Of a DNA stretch of 64,000 nt, positions 44,789 to 50,957 are shown piece after piece; positions within the stretch are counted from its first letter, which is position 1; each line of letters starts with the position of its first letter. Both the position numbers and the translations under genes were made by a program. The stretch comes from Escherichia coli (lineage in GTDB: Bacteria > Pseudomonadota > Gammaproteobacteria > Enterobacterales > Enterobacteriaceae), in assembly GCF_001677475.2 (NCBI RefSeq), contig NZ_CP015229.1; one strand, 5' to 3'. The notes under the pieces are model-generated. The model was not told where the DNA came from and ran no database searches. It worked only from the letters and a program-made list of their open reading frames with translations.

Positions 44789-47464
44789 TTAAGCGGATTT
44801 TTTCGCTTTTTTCTCAGCTTTAGCCGGAGCGGCTTCTTTCTTCGCTGCAGTTTCGCCTTCTACATAATCACGACCGTAGTAGGTATCCAGCAGAATCTGT
44901 TTCAGCTCGGAGATCAGCGGGTAACGCGGGTTAGCGCCGGTGCACTGGTCATCGAATGCATCTTCAGACAGTTTATCCACGTTCGCCAGGAAGTCTGCTT
45001 CCTGAACGCCAGCTTCACGGATAGATTTCGGAATACCCAGTTCAGCTTTCAGCGTTTCCAGCCATGCCAGCAGTTTCTCGATCTTAGCAGCAGTACGGTC
45101 GCCCGGTGCGCTCAGACCGAGGTGGTCGGCAATTTCAGCATAACGACGGCGAGCCTGCGGACGGTCATACTGGCTGAATGCAGTCTGCTTGGTCGGGTTG
45201 TCGTTCGCATTGTAGCGAATAACGTTACAAATCAGCAGGGCGTTTGCCAGACCGTGCGGAATATGGAACTGGGAACCCAGTTTGTGCGCCATTGAGTGAC
45301 ATACACCCAGGAAGGCGTTCGCAAACGCGATACCCGCGATAGTTGCTGCACTGTGAACACGTTCACGCGCTACCGGATTTTTAGACCCTTCGTGGTAGGA
45401 CGCTGGCAGATATTCTTTCAGCAGTTTCAGTGCCTGCAGAGCCTGACCATCAGAGAACTCAGATGCCAGTACAGAAACATAAGCTTCCATGGCGTGGGTT
45501 ACTGCGTCCAGACCACCGAAAGCACACAGGGACTTCGGCATGTCCATAACCAGGTTGGCGTCGACAATCGCCATATCCGGGGTCAGCGCATAGTCCGCCA
45601 GCGGGTATTTCTGACCAGTAGCGTCGTCAGTTACAACCGCAAACGGAGTGACTTCAGAACCTGTACCAGAAGTGGTGGTGACAGCGATCATTTTCGCTTT
45701 CACGCCCATTTTCGGGAACTTGTAGATACGTTTACGGATATCCATAAAGCGCAGCGCCAGCTCTTCGAAGTGAGTTTCCGGATGTTCGTACATAACCCAC
45801 ATGATCTTCGCGGCATCCATCGGGGAACCACCACCCAGCGCGATAATCACGTCTGGTTTGAAGGAGTTTGCCAGTTCTGCACCTTTACGAACGATGCTCA
45901 GGGTCGGGTCCGCTTCTACTTCGAAGAAGACTTCAGTTTCAACGCCTGCTGCTTTCAGTACGGAAGTGATCTGATCAGCATAACCATTGTTGAACAGGAA
46001 GCGGTCAGTCACGATGAGCGCACGTTTGTGGCCATCAGTAATCACTTCATCCAGCGCGATTGGCAGGGAGCCACGGCGGAAGTAGATAGATTTCGGAAGT
46101 TTGTGCCACAACATGTTTTCAGCTCGCTTAGCAACGGTTTTCTTGTTGATCAGGTGTTTCGGACCAACGTTTTCAGAGATGGAGTTACCACCCCAGGAAC
46201 CACAACCCAGAGTCAGGGAAGGTGCGAGTTTGAAGTTATACAGGTCACCGATACCACCCTGAGAAGCCGGGGTGTTAATCAGGATACGAGCCGTTTTCAT
46301 TTTCTGACCGAAGTAAGAAACGCGTGCCGGTTGGTTATCCTGGTCAGTGTACAGGCAAGAGGTATGACCGATACCACCCATAGCAACCAGTTTCTCTGCT
46401 TTTTCTACCGCGTCTTCGAAATCTTTAGCGCGGTACATTGCCAGAGTCGGGGACAGTTTTTCATGTGCGAACGGTTCGCTTTCATCAACAACGGTCACTT
46501 CACCGATCAGAATCTTGGTGTTTTCTGGTACAGAGAAGCCTGCCAGTTCAGCAATTTTATAGGCTGGCTGACCAACGATAGCCGCGTTCAGTGCACCGTT
46601 TTTCAGGATAACATCCTGAACAGCTTTCAGCTCTTTACCCTGCAACAGATAGCCGCCGTGGGTTGCGAAACGTTCACGTACTGCGTCATAAACAGAGTCA
46701 ACAACAACAACAGACTGTTCAGAAGCACAGATTACGCCGTTGTCGAAGGTTTTCGACATCAGTACAGATGCAACTGCACGTTTGATATCAGCAGTTTCAT
46801 CAATAACAACTGGAGTGTTACCCGCGCCTACACCGATAGCTGGTTTACCGGAGCTGTATGCGGCTTTAACCATGCCCGGACCACCAGTCGCGAGGATCAG
46901 GTTGATGTCTGGGTGGTGCATCAGTGCGTTAGACAGTTCAACAGAAGGTTGATCGATCCAGCCGATCAGATCTTTCGGAGCACCGGCAGCGATAGCAGCC
47001 TGCAGAACGATATCAGCCGCTTTGTTGGTGGCATCTTTTGCACGCGGGTGCGGGGAGAAGATAATGGCGTTACGGGTCTTCAGACTGATCAGCGATTTGA
47101 AGATAGCAGTTGAAGTCGGGTTAGTGGTCGGAACGATACCGCAAATAATACCGATTGGTTCAGCGATAGTGATGGTACCAAAAGTGTCGTCTTCAGACAG
47201 AACACCACAGGTTTTTTCATCTTTATAGGCGTTGTAAATATATTCAGAAGCAAAGTGGTTTTTGATCACTTTATCTTCGACGATACCCATGCCGGATTCG
47301 GCAACGGCCATTTTCGCGAGTGGGATTCGAGCATCTGCAGCAGCCAGAGCGGCGGCGCGGAAGATTTTGTCTACTTGCTCTTGAGTGAAACTGGCATATT
47401 CACGCTGGGCTTTTTTTACACGCTCTACGAGTGCGTTAAGTTCAGCGACATTAGTAACAGCCAT
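44789..47464 (-). CDS. adhE: bifunctional aldehyde/alcohol dehydrogenase AdhE
   Basis: 891 aa, N-terminal ALDH domain and C-terminal iron-ADH domain. Confidence 0.97.
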
Positions 47465-47940
47465 AATGCTCTCCTGATAATGTTAAACTTTTTTAGTAAA
47501 TCATCTGCTCGAATACGAGAGTATAGTCAGTGCGGTGATGATTTGCTTAACCGATGAAAATCAAAAGCTTACTCGCGCTCACACTCACTGTGATTTACTA
47601 AAAGAGTTTAAACATTAGAGTTATTATCTCTAATGCGTCACTTCCAGGTGGCGTAAGCAAGATTACTCACTTCTGGGTACTGATTACGTGATCCAAATCA
47701 AATTTTTGCAAAGCTGACACCTTTCAGCATCGTTTTTCGCCATTATAGCTAACAGTTAATAAATTGTAGTATGATTTGGTGGCTACATTAGCATGTTTTG
47801 CACAACTAGATAACAATAACGAATGATAGCAATTTTAAGTAGTTAGGAGGTGAAAAATGCTGTCAAAAGGCGTATTGTCAGCGCGTCTTTTCAACCTTAT
47901 TTATGGCTAATATTATCCGGCTTTTGCTTCGGAGCTAACC

Positions 47941-48588
47941 GTGATTCAGACCCTTTTTGATTTTCCCGTTTACTTCAAATTTTTCATCGGGTTATTTGCG
48001 CTGGTCAACCCGGTAGGGATTATTCCCGTCTTTATCAGCATGACCAGTTATCAGACAGCGGCAGCGCGAAACAAAACTAACCTTACAGCCAACCTGTCTG
48101 TGGCCATTATCTTGTGGATCTCGCTTTTTCTCGGCGACACGATTCTACAACTTTTTGGTATATCAATTGATTCGTTCCGTATCGCCGGGGGCATCCTGGT
48201 GGTGACGATAGCGATGTCGATGATCAGCGGCAAGCTTGGAGAGGATAAACAGAACAAGCAAGAAAAATCAGAAACCGCGGTACGTGAAAGCATTGGTGTG
48301 GTGCCACTGGCGTTGCCGTTGATGGCGGGACCAGGGGCGATCAGTTCTACCATCGTCTGGGGTACGCGTTATCACAGCATTAGCTATCTGTTTGGTTTCT
48401 TTGTGGCTATTGCATTGTTCGCTTTATGTTGTTGGGGATTGTTCCGCATGGCACCGTGGCTGGTACGGGTTTTACGCCAGACCGGCATCAACGTGATTAC
48501 GCGTATTATGGGGCTATTGCTGATGGCATTGGGGATTGAATTTATTGTTACTGGTATTAAGGGGATTTTCCCCGGCCTGCTTAATTAA
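47941..48588 (+). CDS. ychE: MarC-family (UPF0056) inner-membrane protein YchE
   Basis: 215 aa, GTG start, six TM segments. Confidence 0.85.
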   Translation: MIQTLFDFPVYFKFFIGLFALVNPVGIIPVFISMTSYQTAAARNKTNLTANLSVAIILWISLFLGDTILQLFGISIDSFRIAGGILVVTIAMSMISGKLGEDKQNKQEKSETAVRESIGVVPLALPLMAGPGAISSTIVWGTRYHSISYLFGFFVAIALFALCCWGLFRMAPWLVRVLRQTGINVITRIMGLLLMALGIEFIVTGIKGIFPGLLN

Positions 48589-49325
48589 TTCCTTTCAAAT
48601 GAAACGGAGCTGCCATGCTCCGTTTACTTCGTCATTATTTTTACTTTGTTCCCGCGCAGTTATCAAAAGCAAAAGGAATAGGTAAAAATATTCTTCTCAA
48701 ATTACAGTTAGTTATAAGGATTTCCTTAACTGCTTCTCCTCACCATCATGTTATTTTCGCCACATCATAATCCTGGGCTTGCTGAAGAATAATTGAAATG
48801 ATATTAGTAATTCCACTGCCTTTGGTAGAGGAAAGTGCTAAATAATAATCAATTGTTAAATTATTGTGCATTTCACTACTGGAACTGTAATCAGAAAAGA
48901 GAGACATGCTTAACCAATCTCTATTTGATTGAATTGAAAGATGTTTGTTAAGACATGGATGCAAGCTATAGATTCTGATACGGTCAATAAAAGAGAATTG
49001 CTTAACAATTTTGCAAAATGTATTGGCGAGTAAGAACCGCATTTGGTACTTTCCGGGCAACCGCCAGACGATTCTTTATTGGTAATGAGAATAATTAACA
49101 ATTAAAGAACGGCGCGAAAGAATAATGTGTCTCGACAGGGGAGACACAGTACGAATCGACATAAGGTGATCGTCTGAATCACCAGAATAAATAAAGTCGG
49201 TGATAGTAATACGTAACGATAAAGTAACCTGACAGTAGAAAGTCTCCGAGCCTGTGCAGGGTCCCAATCCGGGATTACACATGCTGGTTAATACCAGTAA
49301 TTATAATGAGGGAGTCCAAAAAACA

Positions 49326-50957
49326 ATGACCAACATCACCAAGAGAAGTTTAGTAGCAGCTGGCGTTCTGGCTGCGCTAATGGCAGGGAATGTCGCGCTG
49401 GCAGCTGATGTACCCGCAGGCGTCACACTGGCGGAAAAACAAACGCTGGTACGTAACAATGGTTCAGAAGTTCAGTCATTAGATCCGCACAAAATTGAAG
49501 GTGTTCCGGAGTCTAATATCAGCCGAGACCTGTTTGAAGGCTTACTGGTCAGCGATCTTGACGGTCATCCGGCACCTGGCGTCGCTGAATCCTGGGATAA
49601 TAAAGACGCGAAAGTCTGGACCTTCCATTTGCGTAAAGATGCGAAATGGTCTGATGGCACGCCAGTCACAGCACAAGACTTTGTGTATAGCTGGCAACGT
49701 TCTGTTGATCCGAACACTGCTTCTCCGTATGCCAGTTATCTGCAATATGGTCATATCGCCGGTATTGATGAAATTCTTGAAGGGAAAAAACCAATTACCG
49801 ATCTCGGCGTGAAAGCTATTGATGATCACACATTAGAAGTCACCTTAAGTGAACCCGTTCCGTACTTCTATAAATTACTTGTTCACCCATCGACTTCACC
49901 GGTGCCAAAAGCCGCTATCGAGAAATTCGGCGAAAAATGGACCCAGCCTGGTAATATCGTCACCAACGGTGCCTATACCTTAAAAGATTGGGTCGTAAAC
50001 GAACGAATCGTTCTTGAACGCAGCCCGACCTACTGGAACAACGCGAAAACCGTTATTAACCAGGTAACCTATTTGCCTATTGCTTCTGAAGTTACCGATG
50101 TCAACCGCTACCGTAGTGGTGAAATCGACATGACGTATAACAACATGCCGATCGAATTGTTCCAGAAGCTGAAAAAAGAGATCCCGGACGAAGTTCACGT
50201 TGATCCATACCTGTGCACTTACTATTACGAAATTAACAACCAGAAACCGCCATTCAACGATGTGCGTGTGCGTACCGCACTGAAACTAGGTATGGACCGC
50301 GATATCATTGTTAATAAAGTGAAAGCGCAGGGCGACATGCCCGCCTATGGTTACACTCCACCGTATACTGATGGCGCAAAATTGACTCAGCCAGAATGGT
50401 TTGGCTGGAGCCAGGAAAAACGTAACGAAGAAGCGAAAAAACTGCTGGCTGAAGCGGGTTATACCGCAGACAAACCGTTGACCATCAACCTGCTGTATAA
50501 CACCTCCGATCTGCATAAAAAGCTGGCGATTGCTGCCTCTTCATTGTGGAAGAAAAACATTGGTGTAAACGTCAAACTGGTTAACCAGGAGTGGAAAACG
50601 TTCCTCGACACCCGTCACCAGGGCACTTTTGATGTGGCCCGTGCAGGCTGGTGTGCAGACTACAACGAACCAACTTCCTTCCTGAACACCATGCTGTCGA
50701 ACAGCTCGATGAATACCGCGCATTATAAGAGCCCGGCCTTTGACAGCATTATGGCGGAAACGCTGAAAGCGACTGACGAGGCGCAGCGCACAGCTCTGTA
50801 CACTAAAGCAGAACAACAGCTGGATAAGGATTCGGCCATTGTTCCTGTTTATTACTACGTGAATGCGCGTCTGGTGAAACCGTGGGTTGGTGGCTATACC
50901 GGCAAAGATCCGCTGGATAATACCTACACCCGGAATATGTACATTGTGAAGCACTAA
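49326..50957 (+). CDS. oppA: periplasmic oligopeptide-binding protein OppA
   Basis: ORF 49254..50957; ATG at 49326 gives MTNITKRSLVAAGVLAALMAGNVALA signal peptide, 543 aa. Confidence 0.95.
   Translation: MTNITKRSLVAAGVLAALMAGNVALAADVPAGVTLAEKQTLVRNNGSEVQSLDPHKIEGVPESNISRDLFEGLLVSDLDGHPAPGVAESWDNKDAKVWTFHLRKDAKWSDGTPVTAQDFVYSWQRSVDPNTASPYASYLQYGHIAGIDEILEGKKPITDLGVKAIDDHTLEVTLSEPVPYFYKLLVHPSTSPVPKAAIEKFGEKWTQPGNIVTNGAYTLKDWVVNERIVLERSPTYWNNAKTVINQVTYLPIASEVTDVNRYRSGEIDMTYNNMPIELFQKLKKEIPDEVHVDPYLCTYYYEINNQKPPFNDVRVRTALKLGMDRDIIVNKVKAQGDMPAYGYTPPYTDGAKLTQPEWFGWSQEKRNEEAKKLLAEAGYTADKPLTINLLYNTSDLHKKLAIAASSLWKKNIGVNVKLVNQEWKTFLDTRHQGTFDVARAGWCADYNEPTSFLNTMLSNSSMNTAHYKSPAFDSIMAETLKATDEAQRTALYTKAEQQLDKDSAIVPVYYYVNARLVKPWVGGYTGKDPLDNTYTRNMYIVKH

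Follow-up and report, generated by a model that had tools for sequence, protein, structure and literature searches.

Two promoters, a long leader and a probable chance open frame in the ychE-oppA spacer of Escherichia coli

The ychE-oppA spacer

The window analysed here is a stretch of 64,000 nucleotides from Escherichia coli (NZ_CP015229.1), numbered from its first letter. It contains adhE (- strand), the small open reading frame ychT, ychE (+ strand) and oppA (+ strand) in the arrangement found in E. coli. The ychE gene occupies 47941-48588, with its TAA stop codon at 48586-48588, and the ATG of oppA (+ strand) lies at 49326, so that 737 bp (48589-49325) separate the two genes. The 17-aa ychT frame (47857-47910, + strand; MLSKGVLSARLFNLIYG) is present just upstream of ychE and is annotated in K-12 and in RefSeq, several records of which mislabel its gene name as 'ychE'.

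A sequence-only reading of this DNA had described the spacer as AT-rich, and both its coordinates and its composition are confirmed: the GC content is 37.0%, compared with 49.6% for the whole window, and only 1.1% of the 737-bp windows within the 64 kb are equally AT-rich. Between 48749 and 49060 the GC content is 34%. The sole other stretch of the window with a comparable AT content is the ycgV-ychF spacer (7171-8013, 843 bp), upstream of the autotransporter gene ycgV. On its minus strand, the ychE-oppA spacer holds a 104-aa open reading frame (48746-49060), which exists as described earlier. Compared with eight sampled E. coli, the region 47888-50025 of the window carries several private alleles (e.g., at 47911, 48330, 48546, 49112, 49236, 49751 and 49793), and among 5426 complete E. 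coli genomes the top match listed is 99.3% identical over the spacer.

The first feature after ychE is a stem-loop, AAACGGAGC-TGCCAT-GCTCCGTTT (48602-48625, + strand), followed by a U-rich tail, the two together covering 48602-48643. The hairpin that had been noticed at this place is real, with a stem of 9 bp and a folding energy of -14.9 kcal/mol (z = -4.24 against shuffles). It is read as the terminator of ychE because other genera keep, at the same place, a stem of different sequence and then a T-run (alignment judged by eye). This G+C-rich stem-loop with a U-tract directly after the stop codon is a predicted intrinsic terminator. A terminator scan left the 48602-48625 hairpin unflagged, probably because the T-run starts within the maximal stem.

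Conservation in the Enterobacteriaceae

The locus was fetched from 80 GTDB species representatives, using YchE as the handle. In about 60 Enterobacteriaceae species, oppA follows ychE after 664-878 bp (mostly 720-795 bp) of DNA with 34-44% GC, and homology to the window runs from 48749 through the start of oppA. The length of the spacer in these species argues that it is not due to chance, and the recurrence of a homologous spacer of the same size indicates that the long AT-rich spacer is ancestral to the Enterobacteriaceae and not an insertion. The conserved pieces follow each other in a fixed order: an element at 48749-48764, promoter P1, block A, block B with promoter P2, a Fur-like 19-mer, hairpin 1, an RNase E motif, hairpin 2, a MicF site, three hairpins and the ribosome-binding region AATTATAATGAG...GGAGT. 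The promoter blocks show 77-81% identity between genera, whereas the segment between them shows about 56%.

This distribution bears on the origin of the AT-rich core. Its 34% GC, the orphan status of the minus-strand frame and the repeated landing of insertion sequences (IS) in the spacer would all be expected of a remnant of horizontally acquired DNA, either a decayed island or a mobile-element fragment, lodged between ychE and oppA. However, the homologous spacers of about 60 species from many genera have the same size and composition and carry the same blocks in the same order, which marks the segment as ancestral and vertically inherited, and it is the AT-richest parts that are the most conserved. 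A horizontal origin was rejected on the grounds of these homologous spacers in other genera, and we regard it as extremely improbable.

Promoters P1 and P2

Two oppA starts have been confirmed in E. coli K-12, P1 (+1) and P2 (+246) (Carrier, Lalaouna and Masse, 2023, PMC9988348). The P1 promoter (48779-48807, + strand) consists of a -35 element TTGCTG (48779-48784), a 17-bp spacer and the TG-extended -10 element TGaTATTAG (48799-48807), and is near-invariant in about 55 non-Escherichia species. The P1 start (+1) falls at 48815 (+ strand), as placed from the numbering and oligonucleotides of PMC9988348 together with the computed position of the MicF duplex. EM5064, the primer used for the P1-promoter fusion in K-12, has its end at 48815 and one mismatch to the window (48807, G versus T). 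The leader from this start has 511 nt, the ATG of oppA being +512 on the P1 numbering. Upstream of P1 and centred at -58.5 from it lies a conserved element (48749-48764), TGTTA-N6-CCACA in the window and TGTTA-N6-TCACA in most genera. Column conservation between genera is about 90%, and the element in the window matches the CRP core at 8/10 positions; its binder, judged by this consensus, would be CRP-like.

The P2 promoter forms part of conserved block B (48989-49056, + strand; AAAAGAGAATTGCTTAACAATTTTGCAAAATGTA), which shows 81% identity between genera. Here, a -35 element TTGGCG (49023-49028) is separated by 18 bp from the TG-extended -10 element TGgTACTTT (49044-49052), whose hexamer ends 7 nt upstream of the P2 start (+246 on the numbering of PMC9988348) at 49060 (+ strand), leaving a leader of 266 nt. 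Both are sigma-70-type promoters with TG-extended -10 elements and would fire 511 nt (P1) and 266 nt (P2) upstream of the oppA ATG; in this non-K-12 strain they are expected to do so at the same points as in K-12.

Strain variation around P1

At the last base of the P1 -10 element (48807), K-12 has T (TATTAT), whereas the window, eight further E. coli and about 90% of the other genera have G (TATTAG). Exact matches to the T allele occur in 349 of 5421 E. coli records; the 25 listed are all from laboratory-type strains, and those that can be recognised (MG1655, C600, J53) derive from K-12. The T of K-12 is derived and may be a K-12-specific up-mutation, and P1, mapped as the 'strongest' promoter, may be atypically strong in K-12. 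Since the starts were mapped in T-allele K-12 strains, many with IS2 or IS5 just downstream, the strength of P1 in K-12 may not hold for natural isolates. For the G-allele strain studied here, both the strength of P1 and its exact start are predictions carried over from the K-12 mapping.

Three independent IS insertions lie between the P1 -10 element and P2: IS2 in W3110 (48800-48807), IS5 in the MG1655 reference (in CTAA at 48838-48841, within block A) and ISSen4 in NCTC122 (48972-48978). Each of the three comes between P1 and oppA and spares P2. Among 5424 E. coli records there are 83 in which the spacer is not covered to 80% by any one match. Thirteen spacer matches are on plasmid-labelled records, and some genomes have up to three copies; these plasmid-borne or multiple copies may stem from F-prime-like plasmids bearing chromosomal segments, or from errors of assembly.

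Conserved blocks and candidate regulators

Block A (48824-48870; GGTAGAGGAAAGTGCTAAATAATAATCAATTGTTAAATTATTGTGCA) covers P1 +10 to +56, shows 77% identity between genera and contains no polymorphism among nine E. coli sampled. It holds ArcA-like TGTTA-N6-TGTGC repeats and an FNR-like site with 8/10 matches (48839-48852). Conserved RNA structure was considered for block A and rejected, as the sequences of other genera do not allow the hairpin that is predicted for the window. Two short frames, a GTG frame at 48835 and the ATGAGAAT frame at 49085, were likewise discarded as conserved upstream open reading frames, their start, length and substitution pattern not being preserved.

On its minus strand, block A also contains a promoter-like match (9/12; -35 TGCACA at 48870-48865, -10 TATTAT at 48847-48842), whose transcript would run back over P1 and interfere with it. 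Such an additional antisense promoter would complement the control functions proposed below and not compete with them. It would gain from the high conservation of the block in which the match sits, and from the conservation of its AATAATAA and TTGTGC elements between genera. However, AT-rich DNA readily yields matches of this kind (four were found, against 2.5 +/- 1.5 expected in shuffles), and protein-binding sites are another explanation for these bases, making an antisense promoter unlikely.

For the opp operon, regulator tables list Fur, Lrp, ModE, ArcA, Nac, spermidine and GcvB/Hfq (PMC8910356). Fur is listed as a repressor of oppABCDF in the tables of both PMC8910356 and PMC3688515; the latter also reports an FNR ChIP-seq peak upstream of oppA centred at 1298775. 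This centre converts to about 48895 in the window if the oppA ATG is taken as 1299206 in U00096.2, and the W3110 IS2 coordinate cross-checks the conversion. A Fur-box-like site (49081-49099, P2 +22 to +40; GGTAATGAGAATAATTAAC) matches GATAATGATAATCATTATC at 15/19 positions and is the second-best Fur-consensus site in the 64-kb window; the best, 16/19 at 7631, is in the ycgV-ychF spacer. In most genera a Fur-like match of 13-15/19 occurs 26-27 nt after the P2 -10 element. The consensus match, the conserved offset and the listed repression together suggest that Fur binds at 49081-49099. Consensus scans for FNR, CRP and ArcA gave weak matches against a high background, which serve as leads only. 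Overall, the regulators on record (Lrp, ArcA, Fur, ModE and Nac, with FNR occupancy) most likely bind the AT-rich conserved blocks around P1 and P2, and the pairing of protein and block is proposed from consensus matches.

The segment between blocks A and B

Blocks A and B are joined by a segment (48871-48988) that keeps its length and not its sequence. In 56 non-Escherichia species it measures 126-129 nt, and the P1 -10 element lies 197-200 bp from block B. The corresponding values in Escherichia are 118-119 nt (n = 7) and 189-190 bp. Adjoining parts of the spacer, unlike this segment, vary by tens of bp in length. Identity between genera is 55.9%, compared with 54.0% after one partner is shuffled. 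The segment includes one short conserved motif, ATTGA (about 48929-48932), and an FNR-like site with 8/10 matches (48925-48938).

Neither coding nor RNA structure explains this constraint, since the lengths (126, 127, 128 and 129 nt) do not change in steps of three and the folding z-scores are only mildly negative (means: + strand, -0.85; - strand, -0.38). A gapped motif, AATTG(G)TTAA(CA)AATTT..GCAAAA, is common to blocks A and B. Our preferred guess for the constraint is a protein complex that depends on fixed geometry. More specifically, the fixed P1-P2 spacing could reflect a conserved higher-order DNA-protein architecture, either a loop or a wrapped complex, in which one regulator occupies both blocks and couples the promoters. 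We hold this specific explanation to be rather unlikely. If it were true, the recurrent IS insertions between P1 and P2, seen in laboratory and clinical strains, would be selected for breaking the architecture. In any case, a P1-P2 interval that preserves length and not sequence is a simple, testable geometric constraint.

The oppA leader RNA

Downstream of the Fur-like site, the leader contains two hairpins with strong covariation. Hairpin 1 (49126-49148, + strand) has an 8-bp stem (TGTGTCTC/GAGACACA), a near-invariant loop GACAGGG and a folding energy of -12.2 kcal/mol (z = -3.72), with compensatory changes at all 8 of its 8 pairs. Hairpin 2 (49165-49183, + strand; GGTGATC...GAATCACC) has compensatory changes at 5/7 pairs, and 94.7% of its cells pair. 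For the two together, 13 of the 15 pairs show compensatory changes (179 compensatory cells) and 93.5% of cells pair, compared with 28-54% in the control in which the partners were slid; none of 500 shuffles reached their covariation score. The frequent U-G and G-U pairs assign the structure to the + strand RNA, and hairpin 1 accounts for a 'terminator-like' match found by the scan on the minus strand. Across about 60 species the loop GACAGGG (49134-49140) is nearly invariant while the stem covaries freely, suggesting a sequence-specific partner, either a protein or a small RNA (sRNA). In the P1-P2 segment of Citrobacter species there is another hairpin, whose loop is CCGGACAGGG.

Between the two hairpins lies the site that in K-12 corresponds to '+341', formerly called P3, which is an RNase E cleavage site and not a promoter (PMC9988348). 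In the window this processing site is at 49155-49160 (+ strand); the sequence GA|ATCGAC is invariant, and cleavage leaves a leader of 171 nt (PMC9988348). The T7-oppA primer EM4528 of the same study starts at ATCGACATAAGG, that is, at 49155. MicF pairing in K-12 was mapped to +372 to +392, with an AU-rich enhancer just downstream (PMC9988348). The corresponding site in the window (49186-49206, + strand; AATAAATAAAGTCGGTGATAG) is nearly invariant in 60 species. When the 5' 29 nt of MicF, taken from a primer in PMC9988348, were matched against the leader with RNAduplex, the best duplex (-20.2 kcal/mol) fell at 49186-49206, the published position. The AU-rich putative translation enhancer follows at 49207-49232 (+ strand). 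Primer EM5095, which defines the delta399 deletion, spans 49183-49254, and the deletion removes 49213-49232 (PMC9988348).

Three further hairpins (49228-49260, 49261-49275 and 49282-49299; together 49228-49299, + strand) are predicted by single-sequence folding. RNAalifold keeps the first and the last of them, with compensatory changes at 6 of the 12 predicted pairs. A polyamine-responsive structure has been reported in the 49228-49299 region, according to the passages of PMC9988348 that cite Igarashi (1997) and Yoshida (1999). In K-12, Hfq binds at +484 to +492 and GcvB at the ribosome-binding site of oppA (PMC9988348). These positions lie in the last part of the leader (49298-49325, + strand), which comprises the Hfq site TAATTATAA (49298-49306), the Shine-Dalgarno sequence GAGGGAG (49309-49315) and an A/CA-rich stretch for GcvB pairing. 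Within this region AATTATAATGAG and GGAGT show little or no variation, and most genera have CAACACA ahead of the ATG. An Rfam scan of 47400-49600 (E <= 1) gave only two chance-level matches, mir-399 and rliB, and Rfam has no family for the leader region or for OppX, a Salmonella sRNA from the homologous leader.

The minus-strand open reading frame

The 104-aa frame (48746-49060, - strand) begins with TTG, has 98 aa from the ATG at 49042 and is annotated in RefSeq as WP_001211521.1, 'hypothetical protein'. It lies between P1 and P2, antisense to the P1 leader. Its earlier description as rich in Ser, Ile and Asn holds for the first two residues and not for the third: with 15 Ser, 12 Leu, 12 Ile and only 6 Asn among 104 residues, it is Ser/Leu/Ile-rich. 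The statement that it belongs to no recognisable family agrees with Pfam and NCBIfam scans, which returned nothing even at E <= 10. A search of 5.8 billion clustered proteins and an exhaustive HMMER run against 1.84 billion representatives found no homologue outside Escherichia/Shigella, the hits being Escherichia/Shigella variants and fragments only; those other than full-length E. coli copies cover only residues that overlap the conserved P1 block.

The suggestion that the frame is more likely non-coding is supported by several kinds of evidence, among them this lack of homologues. The codon-usage score is -0.294 bits per codon, below the minimum of -0.087 over 188 real-gene windows of 104 codons each, and GC3 is 0.34, compared with 0.54. 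Stops or frameshifts break the frame in all five other Escherichia species representatives, including one with 93.5% DNA identity. Ten polymorphic sites (nine E. coli) are distributed over codon positions 1/2/3 as 2/4/4, showing no third-position bias, whereas in the same genomes the distribution is 3/0/14 for ychE and 2/0/16 for oppA. Annotation is inconsistent: on near-identical DNA, PGAP calls the frame as 98 aa, as 53 aa or not at all. The frame shares DNA with the P1 promoter and block A at its C-terminal end and with the P2 promoter at its N-terminal end, which is the only reason why the two ends are conserved.

The frame might instead be a real and very young E. coli-specific gene, a de novo orphan transcribed antisense to the oppA P1 leader. 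Such a gene would fit the frame being intact in eight of nine E. coli sampled from several lineages, its annotation by PGAP in 13 of 20 sampled genomes, and a weak SD-like GGA 9 nt upstream of the ATG at 49042. It would also fit the shuffling result: when the spacer was shuffled 2000 times with dinucleotides preserved, an open frame of 109 codons or more arose in only 5.1% of cases, a rate at which a frame this long is nevertheless unexceptional. However, neutral survival of an open frame is expected at about 1-2% divergence, and the ninth strain carries a premature stop. The IS5, IS2 and ISSen4 insertions interrupt the frame in MG1655, W3110 and NCTC122. A promoter scan found no promoter-like site on the minus strand upstream of the frame; a hairpin with a trailing T-run lies just upstream on that strand. 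Together with the breaks in every other Escherichia species representative, polymorphisms without third-position bias and codon usage worse than that of any real-gene window, these observations leave a young gene very improbable. In the homologous spacers of other genera, frames of at least 100 codons are frequent, at other positions and on other strands. The frame is almost certainly a chance one, a by-product of non-coding DNA and not a gene.

WP_001211521.1 (98 aa) and its truncated variant WP_000051910.1 (53 aa) represent this same frame read from the ATG at 49042. Both are ab initio gene calls that lack a family and homologues beyond Escherichia/Shigella and that differ between near-identical genomes. 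As the DNA is the experimentally mapped opp control region, the 'hypothetical protein' that thousands of E. coli genomes in RefSeq carry between ychE and oppA is best removed, a practical clean-up result.

The control region of oppABCDF

The evidence converges on the reading, to which we assign a probability of roughly 90%, that the spacer 48589-49325 is the transcriptional and post-transcriptional control region of oppABCDF, located after the ychE terminator, and that the minus-strand frame is a by-product of its non-coding DNA. This control region is already known: it comprises the two promoters and the 511-nt leader characterised for the oligopeptide-transport operon of E. coli. The published positions of P1, P2, the RNase E site, the MicF site and the Hfq site map without conflict to 48815, 49060, 49155, 49186-49206 and 49298-49306. 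The sequence-only reading had proposed a long oppA leader and promoter region, which the fit of the published K-12 landmarks and oligonucleotides to the window supports; the proposal needs correction in that the leader is longer than might have been assumed (511 nt from P1), and the AT-richest core contains the promoters themselves.

In the proposed mechanism, the long leader would be cut by RNase E at 49155. The leader would carry two covarying hairpins, the MicF site, the AU-rich enhancer, the further hairpins, the Hfq site and a ribosome-binding site targeted by GcvB. For the GACAGGG hairpin and for both promoter blocks, conservation extends far beyond the parts to which a function has been assigned.

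Comparison with known systems

The closest known system is the oppA P1/P2 region and 5' UTR of E. coli K-12 (PMC9988348), which is the same locus. It differs from the window by 7 substitutions in 737 bp, and all of the published landmarks and primers map. In contrast to K-12, the window has G and not T at 48807 and lacks both the IS5 of MG1655 and the IS2 of W3110. The oppA promoter region of E. coli K-12 was reportedly also treated by Igarashi et al. in 1997, as cited.

In Salmonella, processing of the oppABCDF 5' UTR yields the sRNA OppX, a sponge for MicF (Matera et al., 2022, as described in PMC9988348). The OppX leader is homologous to that of the window, and the two Salmonella enterica subspecies sampled (diarizonae and arizonae) keep its MicF site, its RNase E motif and its two hairpins. 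The window has the same OppX-type layout, with a conserved MicF site within the oppA leader, downstream of the RNase E site. In E. coli K-12, however, no stable 5' UTR fragment was detected, and MicF is reported to activate oppA translation rather than being sponged (PMC9988348).

The AT-rich regions upstream of some E. coli operons, such as bgl and flhDC, are hot spots of IS insertion. The opp control region resembles them in the independent and repeated insertion of IS elements into AT-rich regulatory DNA, and an IS upstream of flhD appears in the same published lists of strain differences as the opp insertions. Unlike the situation at bgl and flhDC, all three opp insertions split P1 from oppA and leave P2 intact.
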